DNA from: a virus
Length of the DNA: 64,000 nucleotides
IMG/VR virus record: IMGVR_UViG_3300048919_000265
Strand: one strand, 5' to 3'
The translations under genes were made by a program, and so were the position numbers. The stretch's first letter is position 1, and each line of letters starts with the position of its first letter. Below the pieces are notes generated by a model. The model worked only from the letters and a program-made list of their open reading frames with translations, was not told the origin of the DNA and made no database searches. Positions 2,072-61,217 of this stretch are shown piece by piece.

Positions 2072-2755
2072 TTAATAATCCGTCACTTCCACCAGAGAAG
2101 TAATTTCAGTCGCATGATTTTTTTCTAATCTGAATTCTCGACGAGGCAAGTTTTTATATCCATCTGCAGATTGTTCTACCATCATTATCTGCATACCTTT
2201 ACTAATAGCCAATTCTATTAACTCCGCCAGTTTACCTAAGTTATCCGAATCACTAGCAGCAAAAGCTTCATCCATTGGAATTATCACACAACCAGCACTC
2301 TCATTTATACCAATAGCACTAGAAAAACTTATCAATTCTTGTAATAATTTTCCTTCATTAATATGTGGTAGACGAGTCCTTCCTTTTTTATCAATAATCT
2401 CTAAGGTTGTTTTAGAGTTACGATTTTTAAAATCACTTTTAACCTTAACTTTAAAACCTTCATACGGAAAAACGTATGAGACATTTTCAGTTATCCGCTC
2501 GGACAAAAACAAAAGACGTCTGTCCTTAAATGCTAAATCTTCGGATATGAACTTCTTATGTAGCCTAACAAGGGCTGTCGCGTAAATATCCGTGTCTCTA
2601 CGCAATTTAGTCGCCTTGCTCAAACGGGCCTGTATCTCTTTTCTTTCACGATTAGCTTGTATCCCCTTCTCGAGAGAATACTGTAAGCTACTTAACTTAT
2701 TCCTAAAGGACTGTAGTATAGCCCGTGAGGCGGTAATATCAATATCAGGCAGCAA
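2072..2755 (-). CDS. sbcC: SbcC/Rad50-like ABC-ATPase, C-terminal half
   Basis: N-terminal coiled coil, degenerate signature (INEGK), Walker B/D-loop IIPMDEAFAASD, switch region IMMVEQ. Confidence 0.75.
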   Translation of the reverse strand: MLPDIDITASRAILQSFRNKLSSLQYSLEKGIQANRERKEIQARLSKATKLRRDTDIYATALVRLHKKFISEDLAFKDRRLLFLSERITENVSYVFPYEGFKVKVKSDFKNRNSKTTLEIIDKKGRTRLPHINEGKLLQELISFSSAIGINESAGCVIIPMDEAFAASDSDNLGKLAELIELAISKGMQIMMVEQSADGYKNLPRREFRLEKNHATEITSLVEVTDY

Positions 2756-3839
2756 AGTCCTTCCTCCTTATAACAACAATAAATGTCCCATTCTCTAATT
2801 CCAACTGCACAAAAGTTCGCTTTATCTTAATAGTAATAAAGTCATTAGTTATAGCACCTACAACATCTTTCAGAACTTTAGTTGGAAAAACTAGTGTAGG
2901 TATTGCATGTACTGACCCTAGCTCAACTGGTACTGCGGACCCTAATGTCAACTCCTCCAATCCTGAAATTTCGCTTCTCTTTGCGTTGATGGATTCCACA
3001 TCACTATCCACTTTAAATTTAGCAGAAAATCTGATCGACCCTTCCACCACGCGTGCCACCTCTTGCTCGAAATCAAGAACGATAGTATCAGTAAATCCAC
3101 ATGATTTAACTAAGTTACACACATTGGACAACTTAGTCTTCAATTTATGACTATATTTCTCCCTGAGAACCATACTTAAATCGGATTCTATACTAGCCCT
3201 CGATTGCTTAGCAATAATGACTGTATCTTGTCCTCGACCTATTATAAAATTCTGATACCCATAAACATCGTCTGAGAATTTGAGCAAAAAATTAGCAACA
3301 TTGGTATCTAGATTAAAATTCTCGCACCCTGCTTTATAGTACAGTTGCATACCTTTCAATTCTACAACCACCATACCATTATTTACGTTGATAACTGAAG
3401 TTAAATTCTTGATGACTTTTAATGCGCGTTCAACCTTGAATAAATTTATAGGAACAAAATTACCACTGTTCTCCATCAACTCAAGTCTACTATAAATGGT
3501 AGATATGTCACTTGCTTGATAAGTACTATACATATTATACTCTCCACCGCGAGTAGGTTTAATTGTTAATTCAACATTATTGTTTTCCCCGACAAATAAA
3601 TTTACTACACCATCACTGATTAAGGACATAAAATAATTACGGTCAACTCTAACACAAACATTCTCTGTGAAATCCTCTCTAGATATTACCTCTAATGAAT
3701 AGTGAGAGTAAACTTCCACATTATTAGCGATAATCAATACATTATGCTTTAATATTAAGAAATCCAAGAAATCAACTAGTCCTTGTGAAAAGAAAGATTG
3801 TAATTCTCTCGCATTGCGTACATTAAATGTCACCTGCAT
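2745..3839 (-). CDS. Putative sliding clamp (DnaN/beta-clamp-like)
   Basis: 364 aa, the size of DnaN. The N-terminal pattern LIIANNVEVYSHYSL...VCVRVDRNYFMSLISDGVVNLFV...VELTIK parallels beta-clamp domain I. Replication-gene context. Confidence 0.5.
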   Translation of the reverse strand: MQVTFNVRNARELQSFFSQGLVDFLDFLILKHNVLIIANNVEVYSHYSLEVISREDFTENVCVRVDRNYFMSLISDGVVNLFVGENNNVELTIKPTRGGEYNMYSTYQASDISTIYSRLELMENSGNFVPINLFKVERALKVIKNLTSVINVNNGMVVVELKGMQLYYKAGCENFNLDTNVANFLLKFSDDVYGYQNFIIGRGQDTVIIAKQSRASIESDLSMVLREKYSHKLKTKLSNVCNLVKSCGFTDTIVLDFEQEVARVVEGSIRFSAKFKVDSDVESINAKRSEISGLEELTLGSAVPVELGSVHAIPTLVFPTKVLKDVVGAITNDFITIKIKRTFVQLELENGTFIVVIRRKDFAA

Positions 3840-13602: not shown

Positions 13603-15732
13603 TCACTCATCCATAAAAATCATCTTTTTAAACTTTAATGGTTCTTTAGATCCTTCCGCATACCGATCAAACAAAACTCCCAATTTACTACTTACAGTTT
13701 CTGGGAATTCTTCAGCACCCACCTTACGGGCTTGTGTATCTGTTACACCTTCCATAAGATAATACCGTATTCCACTAGCCAAGCCATTTAAATCTGTTAT
13801 AGTGGTAGTAGTCAATATGAATCGTATATTAGCCGCGGAACAGTCTTGCAATACCTTCTTAAAATTTTCTATTTTATTATTCTTAGAATCACGTCCCCAT
13901 CCAAGAACCTTGTCTAATCCAACAATCCAATTAAACACGGGCTTCAAATGGTTATATGTCATCATTTGATCTTTACAACCATTAGCTTCTGCTAATTTTA
14001 TATAATTAATAATTAACTTTTTGCGAGCCTCCAATAAATCTTCACCACTAAGGCCCCCTAACTTTAAACCTTGCACATAAGAATTCTCAGTACTCAGAGT
14101 TAAAACATGATAGCAACGATACCTATTTAACATAGTATCATAAGAAGATCCCTTATCAAAACACATATAGAAAATTGTGTCAGTATTATCATCAGTATGA
14201 CGTTGTTGAGAGAACACCTGTTCCTCGGCTTCCAGCGCTATTTTTCTATAATAGACTGCACCGAGATATGCAGTTATTGCAGGACTATCTGCATCCCTAC
14301 CATCTAGGATTTTAGGATTTAACTCTTCAAGACCTATTTTAGTGGTCACCTTTTTATCCGCAGAAATGACATTCACGAACACTGATGATCCCATAGCCTT
14401 AAGGTTCTCTTTAATCATTTTGGAGTACCTGACGACATTAAGAGAATTATCGCACCACACCATCATATTCTCTATCTCATCACCTGTAAATTCAAGTCTG
14501 ACATAGTTATCGTCATCTTTATCCCGCATAACAAACGATGGTTCCCCTAAATAAATCTTTTTGTTGCTTCCACCCTTAGAAGAAATAAGTTCTCTGAACT
14601 CTTCTTCATTCAACAAGGACTCTTCATTATAAAATGAGAATTTATGTCTAAACCCAACTTCTGTACCAATGCGATCCAGCTCCAATAGCATTTCTTTGAA
14701 TTCTTGATCCCCTTGGTATGGAACCCTATAATGCACATTATCTTTTTTATCTGCGTTACCTGGTTTAGTGTTTATAATTAATCGACCTTTGGCACCGAGA
14801 TTCATGTTAGCTTCGGTGTTACCAAGCAGTTTATTAGAAACATCAGGCATACATCCAAGTGCCATGCGAACGTTGATATTGTTCAACGTAGCAGTTGGTA
14901 TTTCCCCTGGTTCCTGTGAAGCCAACAACAAGTGATAACCTGTACTACGACCAAGACGGGCAAAATCATCCAAAAGGTCTTGAATTATTTTTGCTTTCTT
15001 AGCTGCATTTTTAAAGAGAGTTTGGAATTCGTCTACAACAATAAGATTACGCGGATAGTTTAAACCCGTGTACTCACGGAACTTTATTAAGTTATCTGTG
15101 CCACCATGCTCCGAAAACATAGCATTTACTTGTATCATCTCATCGCGCAATTCTGTGAGCACACTAATTATATATTCCGCATCAGTAGTTGCCGCTATAG
15201 ACGAAGTATGGGGAAGTATTCCTCCTGAAACCGCATACTTCTTAAAACCCGCTATCTTGGCATCTGCTAATGTGATCTTTAGCTCCCAAGGTGCGTACTT
15301 TAGTGCTAGTGCCTGTATAATACTATCAAGTAAAACAGATTTACCACCACCTGTCATGCCACCGGCAATGGCATGGATGTCCTTATCATTGAGTTCAGCA
15401 CTAGATGGATACCGGCTATCCCCATTTTTATAACCCAGTCCAAGAAGATTTATCCCCTTATGGGAATTACCCTCCCAAATTGGGAAATTATTTTTATACA
15501 GAATAGGGCCGTCAAAACGTAATATCCTCTCTGGCTCTGCATCTCCTTTTTTAAGTCTGCTAAGTGGTTTAGGAATCCTGACTTCTCTAGGATATTGACT
15601 TTCCTGAGAGTGTTTCAGAAAATACTTCGCTACAAACTCATCAAACATTAAGGGGGAAGAACCCCCACGTATAAAGTCTTCCTCTACCAACTTTGTTTGT
15701 TCTAAGATGCTAGTTTCATCAATGGAGTACAT
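13603..15732 (-). CDS. Soluble FtsK/SpoIIIE-family ATPase (EssC/EccC-like), one intact and one degenerate domain
   Basis: HAIAGGMTGGGKS (Walker A), LIVVDEFQTLF (Walker B), ARLGRSTGYHLLLASQ, NINVRMALG. No TM segment. Confidence 0.9.
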   Translation of the reverse strand: MYSIDETSILEQTKLVEEDFIRGGSSPLMFDEFVAKYFLKHSQESQYPREVRIPKPLSRLKKGDAEPERILRFDGPILYKNNFPIWEGNSHKGINLLGLGYKNGDSRYPSSAELNDKDIHAIAGGMTGGGKSVLLDSIIQALALKYAPWELKITLADAKIAGFKKYAVSGGILPHTSSIAATTDAEYIISVLTELRDEMIQVNAMFSEHGGTDNLIKFREYTGLNYPRNLIVVDEFQTLFKNAAKKAKIIQDLLDDFARLGRSTGYHLLLASQEPGEIPTATLNNINVRMALGCMPDVSNKLLGNTEANMNLGAKGRLIINTKPGNADKKDNVHYRVPYQGDQEFKEMLLELDRIGTEVGFRHKFSFYNEESLLNEEEFRELISSKGGSNKKIYLGEPSFVMRDKDDDNYVRLEFTGDEIENMMVWCDNSLNVVRYSKMIKENLKAMGSSVFVNVISADKKVTTKIGLEELNPKILDGRDADSPAITAYLGAVYYRKIALEAEEQVFSQQRHTDDNTDTIFYMCFDKGSSYDTMLNRYRCYHVLTLSTENSYVQGLKLGGLSGEDLLEARKKLIINYIKLAEANGCKDQMMTYNHLKPVFNWIVGLDKVLGWGRDSKNNKIENFKKVLQDCSAANIRFILTTTTITDLNGLASGIRYYLMEGVTDTQARKVGAEEFPETVSSKLGVLFDRYAEGSKEPLKFKKMIFMDE

Positions 15733-31034: not shown

Positions 31035-31045
31035 TTTTAGGATTA

Positions 31046-42510: not shown

Positions 42511-42530
42511 GGGGTGAGTCGCCTCACCCC
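42511..42530 (-). terminator. Intrinsic terminator overlapping the polymerase stop codon
   Basis: Minus strand GGGGTGAG-GCGA-CTCACCCC-TTTCTTTTT (GNRA loop). Confidence 0.85.
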
Positions 42531-47360: not shown

Positions 47361-47630
47361 CTATTTAAACCAGCTGAAAAATTTCTTAGCTGGTTTCAAA
47401 CCTTGTACAAAAAATTCACCATCTTCAATAGATCCCAACACAGTCTGATAACATTTCAGTTCACGTGGGGAAAGAGTACTCTTACGCGACATATTATAAA
47501 GTTTTCGTTTATGCACAATAAAAATAATAGAAGAACTTCCAAATTTAGCTACAACACCTTTGATCATAAACAAGCCTTCCTCCAATCTAGGGCTGGAAAT
47601 AAAATTATCCTTCCCAGCCCTAAAATTCAT
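47361..47630 (-). CDS. Hypothetical protein (89 aa)
   Basis: ORF in operon. Confidence 0.65.
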   Translation of the reverse strand: MNFRAGKDNFISSPRLEEGLFMIKGVVAKFGSSSIIFIVHKRKLYNMSRKSTLSPRELKCYQTVLGSIEDGEFFVQGLKPAKKFFSWFK

Positions 47631-50001
47631 CTCTCTGTCCTACGGTCATCTTGTAAGACTTACCATTACGAAACCAAATCCAATACCCATAAACATGTAA
47701 ATACCGCCAAGCCCCTATATGCTCCTTCTTATACAGTTTCCCTTTCCTAAATAAGAACCCGTATTTATCGGTATCACATAATTTTCTAAACCGGTTAAAG
47801 TTTTCAAACTCTGAAGAAGCTGGCTTCCCGCTTCTATAAATGTTAAAGCTTGCTTCTGCAAAAGAACTCTCCGGTAAATCATAAGGATTTTGCTCCACCA
47901 ACCTAAACTTATCATTAAGAGGCGCATACATCGTACTATACAATTCTTCTAGGTACCTGAATAACATTGAAAACTCATCATGCATTTTATTATACAACTT
48001 CACAAGATGTGAATTAATATCCTGTAATTCCCACCCAAAAGGAACATAATAGGACAAGCTAAAGTTATCTTGAAACCACTTGAACTCGTCATTATGTTTT
48101 GGTCTGATTGGCATAGTAAACAGTTCAATATTCTCACTCATAATAAGAAACGCTTTTAACTCTGTAGCAACTGCCTTATTCTTCGCCACGAGATCAATTG
48201 CCTTGGCAACAAACTTAGTGAAATTAGTTATAAAATCAATCGAGCGAAGAAACGAAAGAAACCTATCGCTATCTGTTTTATAAGGATAAATGAAATCGGA
48301 CAACCCATTATAAACCGCTTGTCCCCAATTCTCAACCACAAACTCCTCAAAATTGAAAAGCTCATCAACCTTCCAAAAAATATTATTAACAGTGCTCAAC
48401 ACCTTAGTATCTTGCACATGTTTTAATAACTTTGGTACTATCTTCTCTACCACAACACGGAAACTCTCAGCAAATTCAAACTTATCATGCTTATAATTTC
48501 CAGTCAAACGACCAAGTTTCTGATAAGACCCTGCCACTCGATTAGGATCAAATATCACATCAGACACCTTGCTTTTGATAGCCTGTCGCTTATTATTATA
48601 TTGATCAATCGCATCTTTAATATTAACCAACGGAATTGCTCTCACACCGGAAATCTTTTGACTGGCAATGATATCATCGTAAAATTGGTCGTTCGTCATA
48701 AGCTCGTGTTGATAATTTTCATCCTCTGCACTACGCAGTTCCTTAATCGTAGTGTACAGCTCCTGATACTCTCGGAATGTTTTGTGCCTACGAGTCAATA
48801 GCACGTCTTTAAAAACATCACTAGGAACCCTAAACACATTTATATTCATCTTCTCTAAATACTTAAGTAAGTCTCTAAGAGAAGACATCCCCACAATCAA
48901 AAGTTTGATTCTCGTGTCATTATTCAACCCGTCCTTTGGGTTATAATCTAAATAACTAAAAACAGGTCTTTGATCTCCCCCACGGGAATCTATATAAATC
49001 TGTTTATTTTGTTCCATCATGTTATCTATTACAACCGGTAAATCTTGTGGACCAATTTCATCCCGCAATAAAGGGTCCAACAGAGACAAGATCTTGTCTC
49101 TGTCTTTTGCCTTTGTATAAGCATACTTTTCTGTATTCATACTTATACCATTACTCACTTGGAAATTAATATCCACAAGAGAAGGCTTCCTGTAAACTCC
49201 AGCGTACTCAAAAGCGTTATTATAAATCGCTAAGATTTCATCAAACTTACGCTGAGCCAACTTAAATTTATACCGTGAAAATAAATCATAAAAAACTCGC
49301 TGATTGTGTCTATACATAAAATTAGACACCTGATAAATATCAAACGCTAGCTTATCAAATCCAACGAGATCTTCGAAATATGTAACTTCCACAGTGGTAT
49401 AATCAGCACGACTAAAATCAGAATTATCAAGATTTGTATTAACACCAGTAGTGTTAATAATCTTAGTTAGAAATGAAGACTTTGACTTCATGTAAAATGA
49501 AAAAGCCTTCACAATGAAAGGAACAATACCATTTGTAGAAGCGTCATAACTCCAATCATCACTATACTTCTCCAAGAAATTTGTGGAGAAATCGTGCATA
49601 ATAACTGACCAGTCAGCATCTGAAAAATCAGCACGTTTATTAGAAATATACTTACGAATATCACGCTCTAGTTTAGCCCGCAATTGCTTCTCCACATACT
49701 TGACCTTGCTATACTCATAAGGAAGATTAAAATCATTATAAGTAGTCATAGTCATAGTGAGTTGCTTATTAAACCAGCTAATAAAATCATCCTCAGAACG
49801 TAAATACTTCACATACTCCCGTATTTGATCAAATGTACTTTCTGTAAAAACATTGCGAGATTTTAGAGTGCTAACAATTTCTTCAGCACTTACTGTACGT
49901 AGTGTATTATAGAGATCTGAATCATTGCCTACAATAATCTCAGCAATGTGCTTTAGAACTGGTAAGCTATAACTAGTATTACGACTCTTACCAAATAGCA
50001 C
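47620..50001 (-). CDS. Large hypothetical helical protein (793 aa), weak sigma-region-2-like segment
   Basis: Long ORF, RBS GGAGGT; see findings. Confidence 0.75.
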   Translation of the reverse strand: MLFGKSRNTSYSLPVLKHIAEIIVGNDSDLYNTLRTVSAEEIVSTLKSRNVFTESTFDQIREYVKYLRSEDDFISWFNKQLTMTMTTYNDFNLPYEYSKVKYVEKQLRAKLERDIRKYISNKRADFSDADWSVIMHDFSTNFLEKYSDDWSYDASTNGIVPFIVKAFSFYMKSKSSFLTKIINTTGVNTNLDNSDFSRADYTTVEVTYFEDLVGFDKLAFDIYQVSNFMYRHNQRVFYDLFSRYKFKLAQRKFDEILAIYNNAFEYAGVYRKPSLVDINFQVSNGISMNTEKYAYTKAKDRDKILSLLDPLLRDEIGPQDLPVVIDNMMEQNKQIYIDSRGGDQRPVFSYLDYNPKDGLNNDTRIKLLIVGMSSLRDLLKYLEKMNINVFRVPSDVFKDVLLTRRHKTFREYQELYTTIKELRSAEDENYQHELMTNDQFYDDIIASQKISGVRAIPLVNIKDAIDQYNNKRQAIKSKVSDVIFDPNRVAGSYQKLGRLTGNYKHDKFEFAESFRVVVEKIVPKLLKHVQDTKVLSTVNNIFWKVDELFNFEEFVVENWGQAVYNGLSDFIYPYKTDSDRFLSFLRSIDFITNFTKFVAKAIDLVAKNKAVATELKAFLIMSENIELFTMPIRPKHNDEFKWFQDNFSLSYYVPFGWELQDINSHLVKLYNKMHDEFSMLFRYLEELYSTMYAPLNDKFRLVEQNPYDLPESSFAEASFNIYRSGKPASSEFENFNRFRKLCDTDKYGFLFRKGKLYKKEHIGAWRYLHVYGYWIWFRNGKSYKMTVGQRDEF

Positions 50002-50015: not shown

Positions 50016-50558
50016 TCATAATCGCGTAAAAAGGTAAATTCCAAAACCAACATAAGCTGCCACCACCAAAGCCTTAACATGCCACGGATTCTTCGCAATT
50101 AGTGGTTTAGCTAACAACTTGAGTCCATTACTAATAACAAAATATGATAGCTTTAATGCCAAACCCGTTCCAACAACTACAGCCCTTTGTGCAGAGAACA
50201 TGACCGTTTCAATAACTTGTGCTATACCAGCCTTAACGGTAACCACACCTATCTTATCACTTTTTCCACGGTTACACTCTTTACAACAAGCTACTAGATT
50301 AAAAGGACGATTCATAGCCTTAGCTAAGACACTATTGTTTTTAACAATTTGTCCGTGACGATTCCTCTTCTTCTTAGCAAAAAAGGAAGGAGGGAAGCCA
50401 TGATCGACTTCCACCTTATCCTTGCCAATGAGAGGTTTCCAACACTGAGAACAAAACCAAACCGCCCCAAACAACCCGGGCTTGCGTTTAAAATACTCAG
50501 AACGATAGTCATACTCATCACGCCAATGATCAACGTGTTGCGGATTGCCCACCTGCAC
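50016..50558 (-). CDS. HNH nuclease-like protein with hydrophobic C-terminus
   Basis: CSQC...EVDH...NLVACCKECNRGKSDK; C-terminal hydrophobic segments. Confidence 0.8.
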   Translation of the reverse strand: MQVGNPQHVDHWRDEYDYRSEYFKRKPGLFGAVWFCSQCWKPLIGKDKVEVDHGFPPSFFAKKKRNRHGQIVKNNSVLAKAMNRPFNLVACCKECNRGKSDKIGVVTVKAGIAQVIETVMFSAQRAVVVGTGLALKLSYFVISNGLKLLAKPLIAKNPWHVKALVVAAYVGFGIYLFTRL

Positions 50559-50563: not shown

Positions 50564-53500
50564 TCAAAATAACTTCATTTTATCCATCTTTTTATCTTCA
50601 CTATTAACCGTTTCTTCTTCCTTAGTTTCTTCCAAGGTAATATAATCTACAGACTCTTTATTTACGGGTTTTATATCATCAAAACTTAATAGGGCATCAA
50701 GGTCCATAAGACTATCATCCAGCACAATGTTCTGCGTTTCTTGTACTTGAACTAAGCTGGATGCTATTGTACCTTCTAACTCCCTCAGGTTATTATGCTC
50801 CTCATAAACTTCGTTTTTCGTCACCTTCATTTTCTTAGGCAACGACAGTATTTTAGTACGAGATCCAGTCACATCCTGCCCGTAGAATAATGATCCTATG
50901 GCTGACTTACCCGGGCTACGGGTTTGTTGAGTAACAAACAACCCTAAACTATCAGCTAGCTTCTCCCTTGCCATTTCAGTTTCCATACCACTAAAATGAA
51001 TAATAACAGGAGAGCTTCCGTTAATGTCAAACATATACTTCACACTACCGTTACTATTTTGCAAAATATCATTCAGTTCATACGTACGACCCTCTTTAAA
51101 ATTCTCGTCATCAGAATCGAGAACAATACCAAGAGAAGTCTGCAACTTAACAAAAATTTCAAAATGTCTAGCGTTAACTTTTATTTTACTAAGTTCAAAC
51201 GTTCTAAAGTAAAGCTCTAACAAAGCCATTTGTTTAAACCGCAGCACTTGTAAACTTGGACTATTTTCTAATTCTGAAGGAATAATGAATCCTGTTGTGA
51301 GTGGCGAAGTTTCTTCCACATACTCTCCACTTTCCACAATTAATTCATTTGCAGTCTGCAGCATTAGTTCTTCGCCATCGTCGGCTACTAGTCTAACATT
51401 ACCGTCACCGCTAGTGTAATGAACATAACCACTCTTAGGCGGCAAAACAGCACCAGTCAAACCTCTAGGTTTACCAGAATCGAGCAGATTCTTTAGTACA
51501 TCCACACCCTTATTAATGCTCGCCCCTGCTACACCACCTTGGTGAAACAAACTAAGCACCAATTGAGCCGCAGGCTCTCCAATACTCTGCGCTGATTCTA
51601 TACCTACGAGATCGTCTATCTCAGGTAATTTATTAACGTCATAACGCATACCATAACAATGTGCACATACTCCCCCAATACTTCTACAAGAAAGAATTGT
51701 ACGCAATGATATACTATCCAAATTCTCCTGCTCTATATACTTTATAGTAGCAGGGCTTATATAATGCCCTTGCAGCAAACTAGGTAGAGCCTCCGTCTTT
51801 CGACGTAACAAAAGACTCTTCATCAAGCTGTCAAGTTCATAATATAGCTTGAATTCTCCATCTGTAGTCTTAATACGCTTGACCTTATTCTTGATTAAGA
51901 GGTTAACGCATTTCTCATTAATTTCTAGATCCAAACCCAGAAAATTCAATAGCAACTTATTATTGGCATTATCACTAGTATCTAAGTGCTTGCCGAACAA
52001 TGCTTTACTTGCTACAAGTTCCCCACTAGGCCCTATTATCTTATCCGTGAATTTTCCATACCGTAGTTTGAAATCCTCAAATTCAACACCACAGTCATGC
52101 TCTACAATACGCAAACCTGAACTCATATAAACTGCAGTTCTAGTTAACTCACCCGAAATCGCAGTTTCATTCTGGGTACTAGCTACACCAGTTCTGGTCG
52201 AGAATGAGAGCAATAAAGTGTCAAAGCTACTAGTGCCTTTTGCGTAATTACTTAACACTGGCACTTCGAGTGTTTCATTCTTGGACTTTTGGAGAATACC
52301 AATAACACCACAGGCTTGCATTATTTGTCCTTCCGTACCCCGGGCGCCGGAATCAAACATAATAAAGATATTATTGTTACGATCAAAACTAGCTACGAAA
52401 GTCTTGGCTATATTGTCTTTACATCCATTGTAGATTTCGATCAATAAATTTTTGCGGACCTCGTTACTTAGCAACCCTTGATAATAATCACGGTTAACTA
52501 TTTCTGCATACTGTTTTGCTTTCGCAATTTTAGCATGCATAGTAGGATCTTCAACAAAATCCTCCAGGTACAAGGAAATACCACTAATGTCGGAATACTT
52601 AAATCCAAATTCCGATATTGCTTGGAAAACTTGCAAATTTTCGTCTGCGTTCAGATCGTTATAACTCCAAGAGGTAACATCACTCAACGCCACGTAAACT
52701 GGCTCTTTCCTGCTACCGCCATTTCCGGAAACTAACCCATCGAATCTGAGGTCACAATAATTATTTGCATTAATGCCTTCAATTCCTAACACATTAGTAT
52801 AAGGCTCATCTGTAAACCCTAACCCGCTCACTAATAGTCCATTAAACAGCACTCTACCAGCAGTTGACAAATACCTGCGGCCATTGGTACTATAACAAAC
52901 GAGGTCATGCAATGCCAAGAAATCCAAATCAATATCCGTTTCCAGCTGCCCTAAATCTGTGTAAAATCTTAGATTAGACAGAGAATACCTCGAGTCTTTG
53001 GTTATGCTATCCACATTGTTGTGTAACATAGTTGCAAAATAAACACCCAACTTCATGTCTTGCGAATGATCCAAAACAACACTATTGTCCTTAGGATTAA
53101 TAACCCCATACTTAGGACTTAGCTTCTCCATAGCTTCTTCACAAGCTGCATTGTTAACTAATCCGATGATCCACATTTGGTCACCATCATAGTCAGCGTT
53201 ATAACCCTTAGCCACCAATGGATGCAGCTCAATACACTTCTTATTAGTAATAATAGGTGTATAAGCTCTAATATTGAATTTGTGGAGAGAGGGCTGTCTA
53301 CCTGCTAAAACGACTCTAGGTTTAATAACCCATTCATCTGAATTAGGATTCTTATACCCTTCGATATAGGCACTAATAACGCCATAAATCTTATCATAAA
53401 TCTCAATAGCAGAAAGTCCCTTGTTAATCATAACTTTGCCAACTTTGGAACGGAAAGCAGCCATATTACTTCCCATAACCTCTAAAACATGTTCCCATTC

Positions 53501-56500
53501 TCTCTTGTCCATATCATAGTCACTTAAGTTTTGAGATAGTAAACTCACTAACTGTGGTTTCCATATCTCTAAACACAACAAGAATGGCAACCCTATTTGG
53601 GTAGGAAGTCTTTTTGGATTACGAGAAGGAATGATAACTGTACGACCGGAGAAGTTAACCCGCTTCTTCAACATATTCTCGCGAATACGGCCGTGCTTCT
53701 TATCTTGATTCTCACGCTTAGCGAAATACTTGAGAATAGGAGTGTACCCTTTATTCTCCTTAATTTCACTGCCATAAGTCAACCCACATAACTCAACAAT
53801 TCGTAAATAGATACTATAAATACCTACAGGATCTTCTTTACCCAACGCTTTATATTTAGACACTTCGTCTATAATGCGTCTATAATAATAATCAAAGTCC
53901 TGAAAAGTATTCTTAAACATAGCCTGCGGTCTAAAACTTAACGGCATAACAGGAAGACTACTAATAACAAAATCTTGCAAAGTCAAGCCAGCTGCCTCGA
54001 AATCGAGAACACCTCGTAAATATCTTTTATGCTCAAGACGTTTATCATCCTTTTGAGCATTCTCAATTTTCTTTTGGTAGAACTCTTTAATTGGTTCGAA
54101 ACTCGTTCTCTTCAACATATGAACCAAAGCTGGCATTCCTGTCAACTTGCCTTCCGTGCTGCCCCTACGGAATACAAACACCTTATCTTCCTTCACAAAC
54201 TCTTCTTCTATATAATACTTGCACGCAATGAGTTCCTTAAGCATACCCATTTGAGCAACCATTACTTTCACTTTGCCACTTTCGTTCTCTTCCTTACCAA
54301 TCAGTAAAAACCGATGTATCTTACCCTTGGTAATCCACATAGGATGGACAAGCTCTGCATGTAAAGGCATCCAACTCCAGCCTTTACGATTCTTAAACCT
54401 CTCCCTATCATTAGTTGTTATCCCAAAAATATTAGTAGAGCGCAAACTATCTTTATCATTAATATCTACTGATCTACTGTTCATTCCACGAATCATGCTA
54501 TCAGTCAAAGGTTTGAAACTAAACCCTTCCATTTCATCAATAGTAGCTTCTGTACAAAGACTACGCATAATAACCTGGAACAAATCATCATTATGATTTT
54601 CGCCTTCGACGTCAACTTCACTTGGGTTTTCAGCAAAACTTTCTTCGAGAGCCTCGATACTTTCTAAATCATCACTTTGTACACTTTGTAAATCTTGTAA
54701 TATACGTTTGCCTCCAACCGCCATTATACACCATGTCTCATACTCACCGAAGGCTTGACCACCTGCATGACCCGCACCTTTATTAGGCTGATTAAACACA
54801 GGATCAGTCTTCTTACTCAATCCAATACCTCTAATCTTATGATCAACCATATGCTCTAATTTAAGCATATACATAACCACAACATTAATAGGTCTCTTCA
54901 ACCACTGACCTGTTCTACCATCTCTCATTCGTAACGGTTTAGTATTAGTCTTCTCCGCCATATTTCTTACAAACTCTAAGGTGTTTCCTTTATAAGGGGA
55001 AACAATAGCAATTTTTCCTAGCTTTTTCATAGCAAATCCTAAAACCCCTTCTAGGATTTGACTAATGTTAGAGCGAGAAGGAACACCCAAGGGACTGATA
55101 ATAATATCAGGAACTACACCGCTAACTGGATCAAATGGCATATCAGATTTTGGAACAATTTTTGCAACTACGCCTTTATTACCATAGCGACCTGCTAATT
55201 TATCTCCTTCTTCGATAGGTTTCAACACACCCAACATTACAACAGCTTCATTACCCTCAATGTAAGAATATATTACTTCACCCTGAACAGTTCCTTCCAG
55301 TCTCTTAACTGCATCAAAGACTCCTAAAACTGTTGTCTCTTTCTTCGTATACTCATTCTTTATTCTCCGAATGCCTAGTACTACATCCCCAGGTTTAAGG
55401 ATACTACCTTCTTTTGGCAAACCTTCATCCGTCATGTGTGGTAGAATTGATTTACCCTTGAAACCAAACTCTTCAAAAGATTTAGTCCCTTTGTCTTCAT
55501 CAATCACAGGTTCTGCCAGTTTATACGAAAATCTGTGCAGTTCTACAGTAGTCAGACCATCAGTACCTACTAACTCGCTACTTAATAAAATAGCATCATC
55601 AATAGTAGAACTTTCATAAGTTTTGTAGCCCACAACCAAATTTCTAGCAATGGCAATGCCACTATTAAACACTTTCGGGTCCACATTCATATTGCCGAAA
55701 TCAGTATGATGGAAAATGTCGTAGCTCCGTGTGTCTATATCGCTACTATGCGTAACAATATCATCACCGGAGTATTTTACACCATTACTTGTATTAACCT
55801 GGTACGAAAACATAACACCACTCGACGCCTTTTGAATAAAGGGCACATTCACAACAGGTGTATGATTAGGTACACCCTCAATGCGGAAATATAAATCTCT
55901 GCTTCCGTTATTAATATCAATATTAGTAAGCTCTATTTCTTTAGTAAGAAAGTCTTCTCTACTTATACCAGAGAGCAATTCAGTATTACTATCGTAATAC
56001 TCCACCAATATCTCAGACGCTCTGATAAACCCTTCCTGTAATAAACTATCACCACCAGAGCTGACAAGAGGTCTCTCGTTCCTTATTGGCACAGCGGTTT
56101 GTTTGTGATGATTACTACCCATCAGCAAACGTTTTGGATTACTATGTTCCTGAAACGGAATTTGCATTCTTGCAGGAGACATTGTTTGATAAGGAGAATA
56201 CTCCATATACAAAACATCTTTAACCGGAACCTCTAACATTGTATCATTATACAACACCAAAACCTTATCTTTCAATACCTCGGTACCATCTTCTAATTTC
56301 TCAAAAAAAGTCTCTCTCCACTCAGCAATATACTGATCCTCTTTTTCTGCAGCAGTAAGATAGACTGGTTCCTTGCTAACGACTCTTCCGTTTTTAACTT
56401 TAATATACGGGGCTTGCAAAAATCCATAGCTATCTGTTTTTGCTAACCAAGTCTTGGCGTGCACAGTACCAATCTTGCTACTCTCAGGACTTTCAATTGG

Positions 56501-58012
56501 ATCAAGCAAACCAAATTGACCTTCTCTAACACTAGTCATCTCAACCGAACTACGTTTAACTTGCTTAGTAACTCGATGTTCTTTAGCCTTTTTCTGAATA
56601 GTGTTATTCAGCTCAGATTGCTGACTCTCCACTGATTCTACGCTTGTAATCTTGTCCATCAAGCTATTAGTATCGAATCCGTGCAGCTCTATAACTCGCT
56701 TCAACAAATCTGAATCTTCTGAACTTTCCTCTACATACTTGGCTATATAATAATTAACAACTTTGCAACTAGATCTTATTGCATTAAGTGCTGTGATTTC
56801 TATAGTCACCAAATTCTGATTAGTCAATTCATAAACGTTATCATAATTATCCAACCCGCTTAACGTGTCAATGAAAACTTGAATCATACCCAAGATATCA
56901 AAAACCTCTAAGTTACCGCTATAAAGTTTGCGATAACATGTATAAGTTTTTCCTTCATTGGAAACTAAGATATTATCCACTAAACTTTGATCAAGCTGTT
57001 TTAGAACTTCTACGGTTAGAACAGTGCCCTTCGAAACAATACTATTACCAACACGTACATCTTCCTCCAACACACACCCTAATGCTCTAAAATTGAAGAT
57101 AGATGTCTTACGAACAATATAGACTTTCTTATTACTATCATAAACTTTTAAAAAGTCAACTGAACAATAATCCAACTCTTCTAACGTCCGAGGATCTAAA
57201 ACCATGCCTTCCCTGTAAATCTTTTCACCTACGGTAAGAGTCTCGCCTAAAAACAAATTTCTGCAACGCTCTTTAAAACTCAACGTGTTTTTCATACGAA
57301 CACCCGCGATATCCCCTAAAACCATTAGGTGAGGGCTGAAAAGACTCTGCTTAGCTAACTCAAACTTATCTTGAATACTCATGTTTTTCAATTCTACATC
57401 TCGTCGATTATTCTTAAACCCTTCGAAAAAGTTGGTGATCACTTGATCAACACAATCTGATTTTAAAGGTTCCCTTTGAGAAAAAGAATGTATAACGTAA
57501 ATACTATCAGTACCCAGTTTGTTAGCTAATTCTGCATAACTCAAACCCGTAAAGGCTTTCAGGAAAACAGCAAGCGGTATTTCACAATCCCCAACCTTAT
57601 TACTTGTTGTAATATACAACTTATAGTCCTTCTCATAAATAAGAAGATTTTTACCTAACTCTGACTTCATCTGTAAATGCGGAATCTTCACCTTACTGGC
57701 ACTCTTCAAAACATACCAACCATAAGACAGAGTATAGATATCTATAACTTGTCTATTTTTTCCATTAATAATAAAACCAGTTTCACCATAGTGAGGTAAT
57801 TTTAAAAGATCCATCGGAAAAATAATTTGTTCACCCGTAGTCTTAACCTTCACATCAACATTAGCCTTAACCATTACCAACCGACTACCGTTTTCTTCAT
57901 AAACACTCTTGTTGTTTATAGGATACATCGAATACTTAACACTATGTGTATCCGTATCGACAGACATATCTTGCAACAAATTCTGTACTTTACTATACTC
58001 AACCTTTCCCAA
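50564..58012 (-). CDS. rpoBC: Fused beta-beta' multisubunit-type RNA polymerase (2482 aa)
   Basis: Beta motifs: GFIINGKNRQV, PIESPES, IPFQEH..KRLLMGSN..KQ, GDKLAGRYGNKG, PLGVPSR, GGQAFGEYE. Beta' motifs: KRVNFSGRTVI, RQPSLH, HPLVAKGYNADYDGDQM, SGARG, bridge helix, CxxxxGVCxxCYG, AQSIGEPAAQL..FH.GG. One uninterrupted frame. Confidence 0.95.
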   Translation of the reverse strand: MGKVEYSKVQNLLQDMSVDTDTHSVKYSMYPINNKSVYEENGSRLVMVKANVDVKVKTTGEQIIFPMDLLKLPHYGETGFIINGKNRQVIDIYTLSYGWYVLKSASKVKIPHLQMKSELGKNLLIYEKDYKLYITTSNKVGDCEIPLAVFLKAFTGLSYAELANKLGTDSIYVIHSFSQREPLKSDCVDQVITNFFEGFKNNRRDVELKNMSIQDKFELAKQSLFSPHLMVLGDIAGVRMKNTLSFKERCRNLFLGETLTVGEKIYREGMVLDPRTLEELDYCSVDFLKVYDSNKKVYIVRKTSIFNFRALGCVLEEDVRVGNSIVSKGTVLTVEVLKQLDQSLVDNILVSNEGKTYTCYRKLYSGNLEVFDILGMIQVFIDTLSGLDNYDNVYELTNQNLVTIEITALNAIRSSCKVVNYYIAKYVEESSEDSDLLKRVIELHGFDTNSLMDKITSVESVESQQSELNNTIQKKAKEHRVTKQVKRSSVEMTSVREGQFGLLDPIESPESSKIGTVHAKTWLAKTDSYGFLQAPYIKVKNGRVVSKEPVYLTAAEKEDQYIAEWRETFFEKLEDGTEVLKDKVLVLYNDTMLEVPVKDVLYMEYSPYQTMSPARMQIPFQEHSNPKRLLMGSNHHKQTAVPIRNERPLVSSGGDSLLQEGFIRASEILVEYYDSNTELLSGISREDFLTKEIELTNIDINNGSRDLYFRIEGVPNHTPVVNVPFIQKASSGVMFSYQVNTSNGVKYSGDDIVTHSSDIDTRSYDIFHHTDFGNMNVDPKVFNSGIAIARNLVVGYKTYESSTIDDAILLSSELVGTDGLTTVELHRFSYKLAEPVIDEDKGTKSFEEFGFKGKSILPHMTDEGLPKEGSILKPGDVVLGIRRIKNEYTKKETTVLGVFDAVKRLEGTVQGEVIYSYIEGNEAVVMLGVLKPIEEGDKLAGRYGNKGVVAKIVPKSDMPFDPVSGVVPDIIISPLGVPSRSNISQILEGVLGFAMKKLGKIAIVSPYKGNTLEFVRNMAEKTNTKPLRMRDGRTGQWLKRPINVVVMYMLKLEHMVDHKIRGIGLSKKTDPVFNQPNKGAGHAGGQAFGEYETWCIMAVGGKRILQDLQSVQSDDLESIEALEESFAENPSEVDVEGENHNDDLFQVIMRSLCTEATIDEMEGFSFKPLTDSMIRGMNSRSVDINDKDSLRSTNIFGITTNDRERFKNRKGWSWMPLHAELVHPMWITKGKIHRFLLIGKEENESGKVKVMVAQMGMLKELIACKYYIEEEFVKEDKVFVFRRGSTEGKLTGMPALVHMLKRTSFEPIKEFYQKKIENAQKDDKRLEHKRYLRGVLDFEAAGLTLQDFVISSLPVMPLSFRPQAMFKNTFQDFDYYYRRIIDEVSKYKALGKEDPVGIYSIYLRIVELCGLTYGSEIKENKGYTPILKYFAKRENQDKKHGRIRENMLKKRVNFSGRTVIIPSRNPKRLPTQIGLPFLLCLEIWKPQLVSLLSQNLSDYDMDKREWEHVLEVMGSNMAAFRSKVGKVMINKGLSAIEIYDKIYGVISAYIEGYKNPNSDEWVIKPRVVLAGRQPSLHKFNIRAYTPIITNKKCIELHPLVAKGYNADYDGDQMWIIGLVNNAACEEAMEKLSPKYGVINPKDNSVVLDHSQDMKLGVYFATMLHNNVDSITKDSRYSLSNLRFYTDLGQLETDIDLDFLALHDLVCYSTNGRRYLSTAGRVLFNGLLVSGLGFTDEPYTNVLGIEGINANNYCDLRFDGLVSGNGGSRKEPVYVALSDVTSWSYNDLNADENLQVFQAISEFGFKYSDISGISLYLEDFVEDPTMHAKIAKAKQYAEIVNRDYYQGLLSNEVRKNLLIEIYNGCKDNIAKTFVASFDRNNNIFIMFDSGARGTEGQIMQACGVIGILQKSKNETLEVPVLSNYAKGTSSFDTLLLSFSTRTGVASTQNETAISGELTRTAVYMSSGLRIVEHDCGVEFEDFKLRYGKFTDKIIGPSGELVASKALFGKHLDTSDNANNKLLLNFLGLDLEINEKCVNLLIKNKVKRIKTTDGEFKLYYELDSLMKSLLLRRKTEALPSLLQGHYISPATIKYIEQENLDSISLRTILSCRSIGGVCAHCYGMRYDVNKLPEIDDLVGIESAQSIGEPAAQLVLSLFHQGGVAGASINKGVDVLKNLLDSGKPRGLTGAVLPPKSGYVHYTSGDGNVRLVADDGEELMLQTANELIVESGEYVEETSPLTTGFIIPSELENSPSLQVLRFKQMALLELYFRTFELSKIKVNARHFEIFVKLQTSLGIVLDSDDENFKEGRTYELNDILQNSNGSVKYMFDINGSSPVIIHFSGMETEMAREKLADSLGLFVTQQTRSPGKSAIGSLFYGQDVTGSRTKILSLPKKMKVTKNEVYEEHNNLRELEGTIASSLVQVQETQNIVLDDSLMDLDALLSFDDIKPVNKESVDYITLEETKEEETVNSEDKKMDKMKLF

Positions 58013-58023
58013 ATCACAACCTC

Positions 58024-58260
58024 CTAACTTTCCAGTAGTCCCGTGATCTCCAGTAAATGTTGCACTGTATCCTCTCCCAAAATACTTTGCATCACTTCCA
58101 ACAACATACCATAATTTTCTTTATCAGATTCTCGAGCGCTATCATTACGTACATAGAATTTAAACATCCCCAAATACACAGACCACCTAAGTTCCAATGG
58201 TTCCCTACCGTTCCTAATGGAAACACAGGAATAAATAATAGCTTGTCTATCAGGCTTCAA
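58024..58260 (-). CDS. Hypothetical protein (78 aa)
   Basis: ORF directly upstream of RNAP. Confidence 0.65.
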   Translation of the reverse strand: MKPDRQAIIYSCVSIRNGREPLELRWSVYLGMFKFYVRNDSARESDKENYGMLLEVMQSILGEDTVQHLLEITGLLES

Positions 58261-58581: not shown

Positions 58582-58818
58582 TTAAAACATATTCATACCA
58601 GTAACCTTAGCTCCGCTTTTCTCAACATTTTCCTTAGTTCTATTTACTGGTTGATTGTTGTTAGAATCCTGCCCACTCCCACGAGCTTCACCCTCATATA
58701 AATTAAAGAGCTTAATTTCTCTGTTTTTAATATTCACCGTTTTCACTAAACGAGCTTCGATTTCTGTATGATCGTCCTCGATTAAACGTCCTTCACTTCC
58801 TGCTATTCTAATAATCAT
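58582..58818 (-). CDS. Hypothetical protein (78 aa) ending KVTGMNMF
   Basis: Start ATG 58818 in ATGA overlap, RBS GGGAG. Confidence 0.7.
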   Translation of the reverse strand: MIIRIAGSEGRLIEDDHTEIEARLVKTVNIKNREIKLFNLYEGEARGSGQDSNNNQPVNRTKENVEKSGAKVTGMNMF

Positions 58819-59945
58819 TGATATTTCTCCCTTCCCATCTGTCGATAATCGAGGTATTCCGTAGTAGATATGATACCAAACTCTTGTAGAGTTTCTAAAT
58901 TTTCCATTAAAGAAGTCCACAGCTTTTGCTTTACTTCTATTGAGTGATCAAATCTATTAAGATCAACTTCTAATTTCCTAGTAATCATCTGATACACTAG
59001 GAAATCGTTCCTTAGTGTACCATAGAACTCTCTAGCAAATTCCATCGCTTTCATGATTTGTTTCTCTGTATAAACTAAGCACTCACCTAATGATATTCCT
59101 TTAGATATGCACCAATAATATCGTATAATTGGATCAAATGCTCTAGTTTTAGCAATTTCCATAGGATAATACGTATATTCTGCCAAAGCCGAATTATACT
59201 TCGCATATGTGGCCCTATTAATTTGCCCATTGTTGAACATTTCTAATAAGGCTGCATGCGCAGACTTGGCTTTATCTTCGAATTCATAACGATTAGTTAA
59301 AAACAAAAACATTAAATTAATGCCGATTGCCTCAATATCCAGATTTACTTCACTAACCTCATCAACGATAGCCATCTTCTTGAAATCTCGAGCAGGTAAT
59401 GATCTTTCTACTTTCAACTTGTAAATCATACCCGCTTTTAAAACTTCCGCTATAGATACCATATGGACCCTGCTAGTTATCTCTCTAACCATACTCATAA
59501 CAGCGTTTGTACGAAGCGCATCAAGATTTCTCCAAAGCTCTTCATTTGGATCTCGCATCCCCTCTAGCACCTTGGACGCAAGCTCTTTTAAATATTTTAT
59601 AATATGTGGATTATTATACCGGTGTCTGCCTAAATCAACCCACTTATTAAACTCTGCACAAGTATGGCGTGCTAGTAACAGCGACCTCATTTCTTCTTTA
59701 TTAAAATGAATATTATAAAACCCTTTTTTCTTTATGGTGTCAAAACGAATCAAAGAGCTGCTAATCTTTTCTTCTAGTTGACCGCTTTTTATGGCCATCA
59801 TCCGATCCACATAATGCATATACTTATTATGGGAAATCTCCTGATTGTCCCGGGCAACTGCCAATTGATACAAAACATAGTCATAATCCGCTTTAAATTC
59901 TGGATTATATCTACTCATAATGAGATATTTATCAATATCTATCAT
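58815..59945 (-). CDS. Hypothetical helical protein (376 aa) with SHOCT-like repeats
   Basis: Three segments of the L..L...G.I...Y type. Confidence 0.75.
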   Translation of the reverse strand: MIDIDKYLIMSRYNPEFKADYDYVLYQLAVARDNQEISHNKYMHYVDRMMAIKSGQLEEKISSSLIRFDTIKKKGFYNIHFNKEEMRSLLLARHTCAEFNKWVDLGRHRYNNPHIIKYLKELASKVLEGMRDPNEELWRNLDALRTNAVMSMVREITSRVHMVSIAEVLKAGMIYKLKVERSLPARDFKKMAIVDEVSEVNLDIEAIGINLMFLFLTNRYEFEDKAKSAHAALLEMFNNGQINRATYAKYNSALAEYTYYPMEIAKTRAFDPIIRYYWCISKGISLGECLVYTEKQIMKAMEFAREFYGTLRNDFLVYQMITRKLEVDLNRFDHSIEVKQKLWTSLMENLETLQEFGIISTTEYLDYRQMGREKYQ

Positions 59946-59962: not shown

Positions 59963-61204
59963 TTATTCCAAGGAGAGTTTCTTCAATCTAGCTCCTCGGA
60001 TTATACTATTTATTGCACCACTATTACGTTCAAATACAGCAACTTGACCAGGTCGGAGGTCCTCTGTTATAATTATGTCTGGATTAAATCCGTTCAACAT
60101 TCTTGCTTCTGTCCGATCCTTCGCTAGTAGCGGCTCTAGTTGCAATCTAACTGACGCTTCTACTCTCTGCTGCTCTACCAATATTCCCTTGATTGTAGCA
60201 TAGTAGTAATTAAACGACCAGTACTCCATTTTCAAAGCCACATTCCTATTAGAATATTGATTAGATATAACTTCACTGTACGTCATGTCGTCAACATCAA
60301 CAACTATCCCATCTGACGGTATTCCATTCGACATATTGAACATCATATCAAATTTTTCCTTCAACCACTCTACAAATTTATCATATATAATAGGAACTTC
60401 GCCTCTTGCTATCTTTATATATGGGACCGTATTAAATCCGCTAGTCTGCAGAACGTCTAAAGTCTCGCTTAACTTTGTGCTCAAGCCTTCCGCTGTAAAT
60501 GCCAAGCTCTTTAGATGCTTGTAATCCTCGGCATCATGCTTGACACGTAACATAGAAATAGCACTACTCTTCTCTGTTTTATAAGCCGCAGGATCATACT
60601 TTTGTCTCAGATATGGTAAAGTATCACTTTCCACATAACTTTCGGAGTAAATTTTCACTTCAGAAGGAAAACCCTTAAAATATCTAGGGACAATATTCAA
60701 AATCGTATCTGTAAAATCATAACCTTTACCCCGTCTTCCGCGAGAAAGTGTTAATTTTAACTCAGATAAACCACCTTCTGTTTCCAGCACAAGACTCTTA
60801 TTATTAATACCGTCAACCTTCAGCGACATAATAAGATCCTGATCACTAAGTCGCATGAAATAAGAGTATGCATCTTCATATTCTGTAATAGCCTCAATAC
60901 TTAAAGACTTCTCCTCATCCAAATAAGGTATATACTCTGAGCGACTCTCATTAGGTGCGGGAGCGTACTTTCCCAAATCAAATTCCTGCAACACTTCAAC
61001 AGGAACTGGATCATCGTCATAGGTTCTATTCAGAAATTCAGAAATACCTGGTAACGCTTCCCGATTATCTTTACAATAATCTTCTAACTTCCCATAAAAA
61101 GTGTCATTAACTATTGGTTGACCTATTCTGTACATATACCTGGTCAAGGCAAAAGCATCCACAACCCGTTTGTCTTTTAAAAGGTCCTGCAAAATATCTA
61201 ACAT
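59963..61204 (-). CDS. ligA: NAD-dependent DNA ligase N-terminal part (Ia, adenylation and OB domains)
   Basis: YMYRIGQPIVNDTFY (Ia), LSIE, SLKVDG (motif I Lys), LSRGRRGKGYDFT, PSDGIVV, VALK, OB strands. Ends before the Zn finger. Start probably ATG 61204. Confidence 0.85.
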   Translation of the reverse strand: MLDILQDLLKDKRVVDAFALTRYMYRIGQPIVNDTFYGKLEDYCKDNREALPGISEFLNRTYDDDPVPVEVLQEFDLGKYAPAPNESRSEYIPYLDEEKSLSIEAITEYEDAYSYFMRLSDQDLIMSLKVDGINNKSLVLETEGGLSELKLTLSRGRRGKGYDFTDTILNIVPRYFKGFPSEVKIYSESYVESDTLPYLRQKYDPAAYKTEKSSAISMLRVKHDAEDYKHLKSLAFTAEGLSTKLSETLDVLQTSGFNTVPYIKIARGEVPIIYDKFVEWLKEKFDMMFNMSNGIPSDGIVVDVDDMTYSEVISNQYSNRNVALKMEYWSFNYYYATIKGILVEQQRVEASVRLQLEPLLAKDRTEARMLNGFNPDIIITEDLRPGQVAVFERNSGAINSIIRGARLKKLSLE

Positions 61205-61217
61205 AACCTTGCCACCT

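Follow-up and report, generated by a model that had tools for sequence, protein, structure and literature searches.

The fused polymerase gene

The 64,000-nucleotide (nt) stretch analysed here (IMG/VR virus record IMGVR_UViG_3300048919_000265, hereafter the window) belongs to a 212.5-kb element and carries a single uninterrupted open reading frame (ORF; 50564..58012, minus strand) for a fused beta-beta' RNA polymerase of 2482 amino acids (aa), with TTG as the start and TGA as the stop codon (Table 1). The start at 58012 is backed by an AGGAGG sequence 8 nt upstream (58021-58026) and is also favoured by the first 12 residues, which are conserved in the relatives P0003 and P0004. Residues 536-1117 matched the Pfam domains Rpb2_45, Rpb2_6 (E 4e-50) and Rpb2_7, all of the beta subunit, and C-terminal to them residues 1450-2178 matched Rpb1_2, Rpb1_3, Rpb1_4 and Rpb1_5, all of beta'. 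The top PDB matches obtained with phmmer were bacterial beta' chains (Clostridioides difficile 7l7b_D, E 4e-87), and beta chains were also recovered. In the 61-sequence alignment the last beta block (corresponding to E. coli beta 1320-1342) stops at residue 1159, and the first beta' block (E. coli beta' ~15-30) begins about 6 residues further, which puts the junction at ~54535. Exact look-ups of the polymerase protein P0002 and of one window ORF returned no matching record.

The original prediction, made from the letters of the window, had described beta and then beta' blocks in one frame in the cellular order, and this was borne out by Pfam, PDB matches and alignments; the seamless junction that it placed near 54520-54600 agrees with the aligned position, and the location given for NADYDGD (53180-53200, residues 1605-1611) proved exact by motif search and alignment. 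Its wording that nearly all conserved blocks are present holds for most of them, but not for the beta' N-terminal zinc ribbon, which is missing in the alignment.

Table 1. The polymerase gene, its parts and other features of the window. C37 is the collinear contig of a Wujia sp. genome described below.
Feature	Position	Strand	Basis
Fused beta-beta' RNA polymerase gene	50564..58012	-	ORF list, Pfam, fused homologues
Ribosome-binding site AGGAGG	58021..58026	-	Read directly, 8 nt before TTG
Beta-like module, residues 1-1159	54536..58012	-	Alignment with E. coli, B. subtilis and C. difficile beta; Pfam; phmmer against PDB
Beta'-like module, residues 1160-2334	51011..54535	-	Alignments, Pfam Rpb1_2-5, PDB matches
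Catalytic Mg-binding motif NADYDGD, residues 1605-1611	53180..53200	-	Motif search, alignment
C-terminal extension, 148 aa	50567..51010	-	Alignment, composition
Terminal tail M-D-K-M-K-L-F-COOH, putative docking tail	50567..50587	-	Tail statistics
112-aa protein just upstream of the polymerase gene, tail ..V-T-G-M-N-M-F	58582..58920	-	Tail scan; no Pfam family
Predicted DnaN-type sliding clamp, 364 aa, candidate tail receptor	2745..3839	-	AF2 and Foldseek
FtsK/SpoIIIE-family ATPase, 709 aa, secretion/transfer-like module, candidate tail receptor	13603..15732	-	Pfam FtsK_SpoIIIE, E 1.9e-17
180-aa downstream neighbour, weak HNH-like match	50016..50558	-	Pfam HNH E 0.004, below cut-off; C37 homologue in the same position, 34%
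793-aa protein two genes downstream	47620..50001	-	Syntenic C37 homologue, 20% identity; Atlas matches <0.9
Family-A DNA polymerase, 1262 aa, with 3'-5' exonuclease domain	42524-46312	-	C37 homologue
Weak NAD-ligase adenylation-domain protein	59963-61240	-	C37 homologue

Active site and structural elements

The active-site residues of the polymerase are intact, including the lysines of the GDK..GNKG block, NADYDGD, the bridge helix and the second zinc site; the lid is also kept, and the ED pair is present as DD. In the beta part, GDKLAGRYGNKGVV aligns with E. coli 1060-1075 and ..IDDAI with E. coli 813-814. Across 36 family members K938, G944, N945, K946 and G947 were invariant, as were N1605, A1606, D1607, D1609, G1610 and D1611, and NAD[FY]DGD was found in 119 of 121 sequences among the family matches listed. 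In the second zinc site (E. coli C814, C888, C895, C898) C1974, C2109 and C2116 are invariant and C2119 is nearly so. The clamp-helix coiled coil is retained, being slightly shorter than in bacteria. The trigger loop reads LSLFH, i.e. the equivalent of R933 is replaced and that of H936 is kept in the subclade of this polymerase.

The beta' N-terminal zinc ribbon (E. coli C70, C72, C85, C88) is deleted, together with its cysteines, in every family member examined, and the clamp-helix residues which touch sigma region 2 in E. coli are replaced family-wide. The flap-tip segment is shorter and non-conserved, with an uncertain alignment in this region. The N-terminal lobes of the beta-like module have diverged, and its C-terminal clamp blocks are conserved. 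The region of the rifampicin pocket is rewritten in the whole family (equivalents of D516E, H526K and S531T), from which a rifamycin-insensitive transcription is predicted.

The polymerase family and its carriers

A search of 5.8 billion protein clusters produced 790 matches at E <= 0.001 (proteins of 1365-4344 aa), so that the family, counted as clusters at 90% identity, has at least 790 members. Nearly all of the 120 matches listed were 2350-2900 aa long, had both beta and beta' Pfam domains and were located on contigs of up to 310 kb. Close relatives with split genes were not found among the shorter proteins, of which the best were ordinary Bacillota beta' subunits with 25-30% identity and ~275 bits. 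The conservation of the fusion in hundreds of relatives from independent assemblies shows that it is not an assembly artefact, a possibility which the original prediction had named as fatal to its claim.

The family has a RefSeq member, the hypothetical protein WP_394861647.1 of Paraclostridium bifermentans; if it comes from a cultured isolate, the system would be open to experiment. Among species-representative genomes a single one had a member, the metagenome-assembled genome (MAG) of a Wujia sp. (Lachnospiraceae), where it is encoded on a contig of 250,423 bp (C37), while a separate normal rpoB/rpoC pair is present on a different contig. The window together with 19.5 kb beyond its start (83.5 kb in total) is collinear with C37:123-202 kb at 19-49% amino-acid identity; the collinearity runs for another 40 kb and then breaks up among small ORFs. 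On C37, 133 of the 136 ORFs of at least 200 aa lie on one strand, and the window has a GC skew that stays near -0.25 throughout. Taken together, the searches of the window's own element covered 135 kb of its 212.5 kb, i.e. the window and 71 kb beyond its start.

No family member was present in the phage and plasmid reference collections, including 50,697 phage records. The matches from the plasmid collection, as well as the strongest and most complete ones from the phage collection, were mislabelled chromosomal rpoBC genes with 26-30% identity; the other phage-collection matches were genuine, distant phage polymerase genes (Arash, Rhizobium phages). As a side observation, dozens of reference records named as plasmid or phage, such as ~100-kb C. 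difficile 'plasmids' and 'Staphylococcus phage SA 1306 Kay', carry ordinary chromosomal rpoB-rpoC together with ribosomal protein genes and are apparently mislabelled chromosome fragments. Neither the family nor any fused polymerase on a plasmid-like element turned up in full-text literature searches, and a megaplasmid preprint does not mention RNA polymerase (PMC12934698).

Phylogenetic placement

The reference set consisted of beta+beta' pairs from 12 bacteria of 7 phyla, most of them taken from chromosomal pieces mislabelled as plasmids. Trees were calculated with FastTree for 61 sequences (2037 columns; 12 bacteria and 49 fused proteins) and for 72 sequences, and with IQ-TREE for 40 sequences; Helicobacter and Wolbachia were not included. 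In the 61-sequence tree the 12 bacteria formed one clade (support 1.0; approximate likelihood-ratio test, aLRT, 100) on a stem of 1.03 substitutions per site, and all 49 fused proteins were placed outside of it. The polymerase thus does not belong to any sampled chromosomal RpoBC lineage, in agreement with the original prediction. It had no affinity to Clostridia, the distance of the window polymerase (P0001) being 3.32 to Clostridia and 3.28 to other bacteria. The mean distance within the core family was 2.17 compared to 0.94 among the bacteria, and over 1700 conserved columns P0001 was 25.5-27% identical to the bacterial enzymes, while E. coli and C. difficile shared 62%.

Fusions of RpoB and RpoC are known from the chromosomes of Helicobacter and Wolbachia, where beta and beta' are joined head to tail and still make a working bacterial core enzyme. 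These, however, are ordinary members of their lineages in the rplKAJL-rpoBC context, in contrast to the window polymerase, which is placed outside the bacteria and is encoded among genes of a mobile element.

In the 72- and 40-sequence trees the element family, a fused viral group, a split viral group (with beta' before beta) and the bacteria were each monophyletic (1.0/aLRT 100). The family grouped with the fused viral proteins against the bacteria plus the split viral group with an aLRT of 93.7, albeit on a short branch of 0.12, so that the split viral group fell on the bacterial side of the tree. On the other hand, P0001 is less identical to the fused viral clade (22%) than to the bacteria (26%), and hence long-branch attraction could create this grouping; moreover, a fusion at the natural contact between the end of beta and the start of beta' could have arisen twice. 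With moderate support from the trees, the nearest group to the family is the fused phage clade without the zinc ribbon, and it may be its sister.

Fused polymerases of large phages and other known enzymes

A profile-guided scan found 480 relatives in IMG/VR. Among the best 80 of the 480 loci (L040-L119), at least 38 encoded one chain of 1900-2900 aa (e.g. L060:8777-15181) in which the beta lysine motif precedes NADFDGD; the remainder had mostly separate beta' and then beta genes, and one was a host contamination. Four of the fused proteins, aligned with P0001, P0054 and P0118, have the same seamless junction and likewise lack the zinc ribbon. Four viral genomes with a fused polymerase were 160-193 kb long and 91-100% complete according to CheckV, two of them with terminal repeats, and none of the four had a Gp23 capsid match; Sigma70_r4 genes were present in the fused-polymerase phage genomes. 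Most of the 16 fused viral proteins examined end in a conserved ..x-Y-COOH.

Cultured relatives of the fused viral group are Vibrio phages D69, D148 and D181, whose fused polymerase genes are annotated as hypothetical proteins, and Salmonella phage Arash. In Vibrio phages D148 and D181 a homing endonuclease was noticed under the polymerase match. In Arash the gene of the fused type is in two pieces, Gp206 (1525 aa, beta and the N-terminal half of beta') and Gp216 (606 aa), located at L017:5705-10282 and 15053-16873 with ~4.8 kb and nine genes in between. Both proteins and a sigma factor are among the most abundant virion proteins of this phage, and its description names Gp206 and Gp216 only as beta and beta' (PMC10585845). 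A paper describing the beta-beta' fusion in phages was not found. The original prediction, which regarded the multisubunit polymerases of phages as split and far more divergent, overlooked this clade. Accordingly, its claim of an independent fusion stands in respect to every sampled bacterial lineage, but is weakened by the large-phage clade that groups with the family, in which the fusion has the same junction and the zinc ribbon is likewise missing.

The Arash/D69-type clade has in common with the element family the joining of beta to beta' in one chain, the junction, the absence of the beta' zinc ribbon and the sigma70-type genes alongside. The Arash-type proteins differ in being shorter (~2050-2200 aa) and 22% identical, in having a flap tip of bacterial length and the trigger-loop MRTFH, and in ending with ..x-Y, in contrast to ..M-x-x-F in the element family. 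The two groups are reciprocally monophyletic (1.0/100), and the window polymerase is not inside the Arash-type clade. Furthermore, the Arash-type genomes (130-190 kb in IMG/VR) have portal, capsid and tail genes without a detectable relative on the element: when the Arash portal, capsid, tail and other virion proteins were compared by phmmer with the complete ORF set of C37 and with 135 kb of the window's own element, the polymerase was the only match.

The mReC phages were found by matches to both beta and beta' models and have T4-like Gp23 capsids (Weinheimer and Aylward, 2020; PMC7481178). They resemble the element family in having cellular-type beta and beta' on a mobile genome and in branching outside of the cellular lineages, but their genes are separate and accompanied by the Gp23 capsid, versus a single fused gene and the absence of PF07068 from C37. 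We infer that the split IMG/VR group corresponds to mReC. The polymerases of phiKZ and AR9 consist of 4-5 polypeptides without alpha and are much more divergent (PMC7598289). Similar to what is proposed here, they are a mobile element's own two-barrel polymerases, host-independent and insensitive to rifampicin; they are, however, split and lack alpha, in contrast to one chain with an alpha-like gene in the present case.

Accessory subunits

Alpha, omega and sigma were not found in the 45 ORFs of the window (Pfam, E <= 0.01-0.1), as the original prediction had it, but beyond the window this does not hold for alpha: an alpha-like gene for a protein of 231 aa, corresponding to the N-terminal domain (NTD) and without the C-terminal domain (CTD), is located 12.8 kb beyond the window start (L004:14682-15377). 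All 37 PDB matches of this protein by phmmer were RpoA over the N-terminal domain (best E 1.3e-4), the Pfam match to RNA_pol_L (E 0.011) was below the cut-off, and a homologue with 30% identity is present at the syntenic place in C37. The own element also encodes a GreA_GreB_N protein of 183 aa, 39 kb beyond the window start. PF01000 had no match in the four fused-polymerase phage genomes, which is uninformative because the same model also misses the alpha-like gene of the element. For omega (PF01192) no match was obtained on C37 or in the window ORFs, albeit small divergent proteins could be missed.

C37 has a protein of 211 aa with Sigma70_r4 above the cut-off and a weak region 2. A second protein of C37 (C37:98562-99149, L024:18562-19149, minus strand; 195 aa) combines Sigma70_r4 (residues 49-93, 28.5 bits) with RNA_pol_A_CTD (residues 117-175, 28.5 bits), both above the Pfam cut-offs; the alpha-like gene of the element has no CTD. 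We know of no earlier example of a fusion between sigma region 4 and the alpha CTD. The 793-aa ORF two genes downstream of the polymerase was considered as a sigma factor but found no support, having neither a Pfam nor a PDB match; in its nearest Pfam-bearing Atlas cluster 48% of the members have Sigma70_r2, with a score of 0.88, below the threshold of 0.9.

C-terminal tail and its candidate receptors

The extension after the last beta' block (148 aa) is family-specific, mildly acidic (D+E 18%, K+R 12%) and has no counterpart in bacterial beta'. It ends in M-D-K-M-K-L-F, with the pattern h-x-x-[ML]-x-x-F. The final Phe is present in 70 of the 118 full-length family members, compared to an overall Phe frequency of 3.9%, and [LMIV]-x-x-F occurs within the last three residues in 65 of the 118. 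A similar tail, mostly M-[DNEKS]-[LIMV]-F, was found on 19 of 228 coding-strand ORFs of C37 (~8%) versus 5 of 196 on the opposite strand; among its bearers are a protein with a zinc ribbon of the DnaG type, an LRR/DUF285 protein and eight small ORFs in a row. The latter (111-192 aa) are packed into 6 kb (C37:67822-73569), each ending in M-[DNE]-[LIMV]-F like the polymerase tail. The family-A DNA polymerase of the window has no such tail.

There are two plausible candidates for a receptor of the tail, the FtsK/SpoIIIE ATPase at 13603-15732, which is conserved in C37 with 37% identity, and the DnaN-type clamp at 2745-3839. The latter was not detectable by sequence, since phmmer, a 40-sequence profile against PDB and Pfam were all blank. 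Its AF2 model (predicted local distance difference test, pLDDT, 91.5) identifies it by the predicted fold alone as a sliding clamp of the DnaN type: the 50 Foldseek PDB matches listed were all DnaN (E 4.5e-15, TM 0.57-0.67). In the Atlas it had a match with a TM of 0.75, and the nearest clusters were labelled mostly as viral; clustering of its relatives at the 50% level leaves 68 representatives.

In late transcription of T4 the gp45 clamp is bound by the C-terminal tails of gp33 and gp55, and in type VII secretion FtsK-type ATPases read C-terminal signals, such as ..L-x-x-x-M-x-F of CFP-10. The present tail is likewise short and hydrophobic, has Phe as its C-terminal residue, is carried by a flexible linker and recurs on unrelated proteins. 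In contrast to the T4 tails and CFP-10, it is located on the catalytic polymerase chain itself, and it may bind a receptor in a similar way. The tail might even be a transfer signal read by the FtsK/SpoIIIE-type ATPase module, making the polymerase a cargo that would enter the new host pre-assembled together with the DNA; we consider this rather unlikely. If true, a plasmid-like element would have its own equivalent of the polymerases that Arash, N4 and phiKZ package in their virions, and this would explain the start-up of an element whose promoters the host cannot read.

Proposed function and alternatives

The polymerase is probably the catalytic core of an element-encoded RNA polymerase of the bacterial type which transcribes the element's own genes. 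The possession of an own fused polymerase of this type, forming a large family, suggests that the elements probably transcribe themselves, and the original prediction of a single-chain bacterial-type polymerase on an extrachromosomal or mobile element was confirmed. Judged from the sequence comparisons, its most likely function would be an autonomous and probably rifamycin-insensitive transcription of long one-strand operons. The fused chain would be joined by two alpha-like subunits in the bacterial manner, and GreA would rescue the polymerase on very long one-strand operons. The host sigma-A would not be the initiation factor, because the enzyme has lost the zinc ribbon and differs in the clamp-helix residues that contact sigma and in the flap-tip segment; the initiation may instead depend on element-encoded factors, which in C37 could be the sigma70-type protein and the fusion of sigma region 4 with the alpha CTD. 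The tail on its flexible extension would dock the enzyme on a shared receptor: with the FtsK-type ATPase in this role the polymerase would be delivered with the DNA, and with the sliding clamp the transcription would be coupled to replication.

Several observations weigh against this proposal. The trigger loop has lost the equivalent of R933 and, in some family members, also that of H936, so that the catalytic rate may be altered. The interpretation of the flap tip rests on an uncertain alignment. The alpha assignment depends on weak sequence scores, and an AF2 model calculated from a 2-sequence alignment reached a pLDDT of only 41.9. In 135 kb of the own element the searches for sigma, sigma-like factors and omega came up empty; neither of the two sigma-like proteins of C37 had a detectable homologue there, and a hidden Markov model built from the C37 sigma and 8 homologues from close relatives also found nothing in this part. 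Finally, no element-specific promoter motif was recovered, the enriched intergenic 7-mers being only ribosome-binding sites and T-runs.

The carrier might also be an unrecognised giant phage with a polymerase of the Arash type, which is packaged and injected for the early genes and for which the tail serves as a packaging signal. This would fit with the nearest clade outside the family, i.e. the fused zinc-ribbon-less polymerases of 160-193-kb viral genomes and cultured phages, with the abundance of Gp206, Gp216 and sigma in Arash virions (PMC10585845), with the mostly viral labels of the Atlas relatives of the clamp, and with the one-strand gene order and the set of replication genes typical of large phages. 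However, the virion proteins of Arash matched nothing except the polymerase on C37 and the own element, C37 has no Gp23-type capsid, the family is absent from the 50,697 phage records, and the fused IMG/VR proteins in the tree make a separate clade; furthermore, the grouping with this clade depends on a branch of 0.12 between long branches and is opposed by the identities of 22% versus 26%. A giant phage has only a small chance of being the right answer. A still lower probability is given to a fused chain without accessory subunits of its own, which would be either alpha-independent as in phiKZ/AR9 or would borrow alpha and sigma from the host. The original prediction had offered just these two options for alpha, and the empty Pfam results for alpha, omega and sigma in the window, the lack of a sigma in 135 kb of the element and the retained clamp-helix coiled coil and lid are in their favour. 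They are made improbable by the alpha-NTD-like gene with its 37 RpoA matches in PDB, which is conserved on both elements, by the sigma70-type genes of C37, by the loss of the zinc ribbon and the replaced sigma-contact residues of the clamp helices, and by the 26% identity to the host beta/beta', at which conserved docking surfaces for the host alpha are unlikely.

Very unlikely is a specialised RNA synthase, making, for example, replication primers or R-loops at the origin and tethered by its tail to the clamp of the element, even if the tail resembles clamp-binding peptides (QL[SD]LF, PIP-like h-x-x-F), the element encodes its own DnaN-type clamp and clamp loader, and the strong constant GC skew suggests one replication direction. 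DnaG-type zinc-ribbon/primase-like genes are already present on the element, GreA, the alpha-like subunit and the sigma factors of the relatives fit transcription, and the family-A polymerase is without the tail, while the LRR protein and many small proteins have it. That the gene is simply the chromosomal rpoB-rpoC of some unusual bacterium, or two genes joined by mis-assembly, would agree with the beta and beta' blocks in the cellular order but is practically untenable: it is refuted by the flanks, which consist of HNH-like, ligase-like and PolA genes and not of rplL/rpsL, by the fusion conserved in hundreds of independent assemblies, by the separate normal rpoB/rpoC of the Wujia MAG and by the position of the family outside of the bacterial clade.

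To our knowledge, multisubunit RNA polymerases on mobile DNA have so far been known from phages. The carriers of the present family are 130-310-kb elements of gut Clostridia showing no Arash-like virion genes where searched, and with transcription by their own enzyme these plasmid-like elements would probably be autonomous in this respect. The beta-beta' fusion, the alpha NTD and GreA, to which the relatives add sigma and the fusion of sigma region 4 with the alpha CTD, would be the most complete bacterial-type set outside a chromosome. For the evolution of polymerases the family provides a new deep branch, internally more diverse than the 12 sampled bacteria from 7 phyla, and it offers a natural experiment on changes in the zinc ribbon, omega, the linkage to the alpha CTD and the rifampicin pocket.

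Other genes of the element

The HNH-like gene at 50016..50558 is translationally coupled to the polymerase gene, its start being located 5 nt past the polymerase stop codon. Further out, the polymerase region is flanked by the genes for the family-A polymerase and the ligase-like protein, whose counterparts in C37 have 39 and 44% identity, respectively. Genes for a clamp loader and for DnaG-type zinc-ribbon/primase-like proteins are also present on the element, together with a T2SSE-type ATPase identified by Pfam. A short-chain dehydrogenase (adh_short_C2, E 1e-48) and an amino-acid permease (E 3e-34) encoded at 28519-32410 on the minus strand fall into a gap of the synteny with C37 and look like a recently acquired cargo of the host type. 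At a distance of 48-56 kb beyond the window start (L037:18128-19719, L038:16595-17260), the Pfam search of the own element recovered genes for two Macro-domain proteins, an Hsp70 and a PemK-type toxin.

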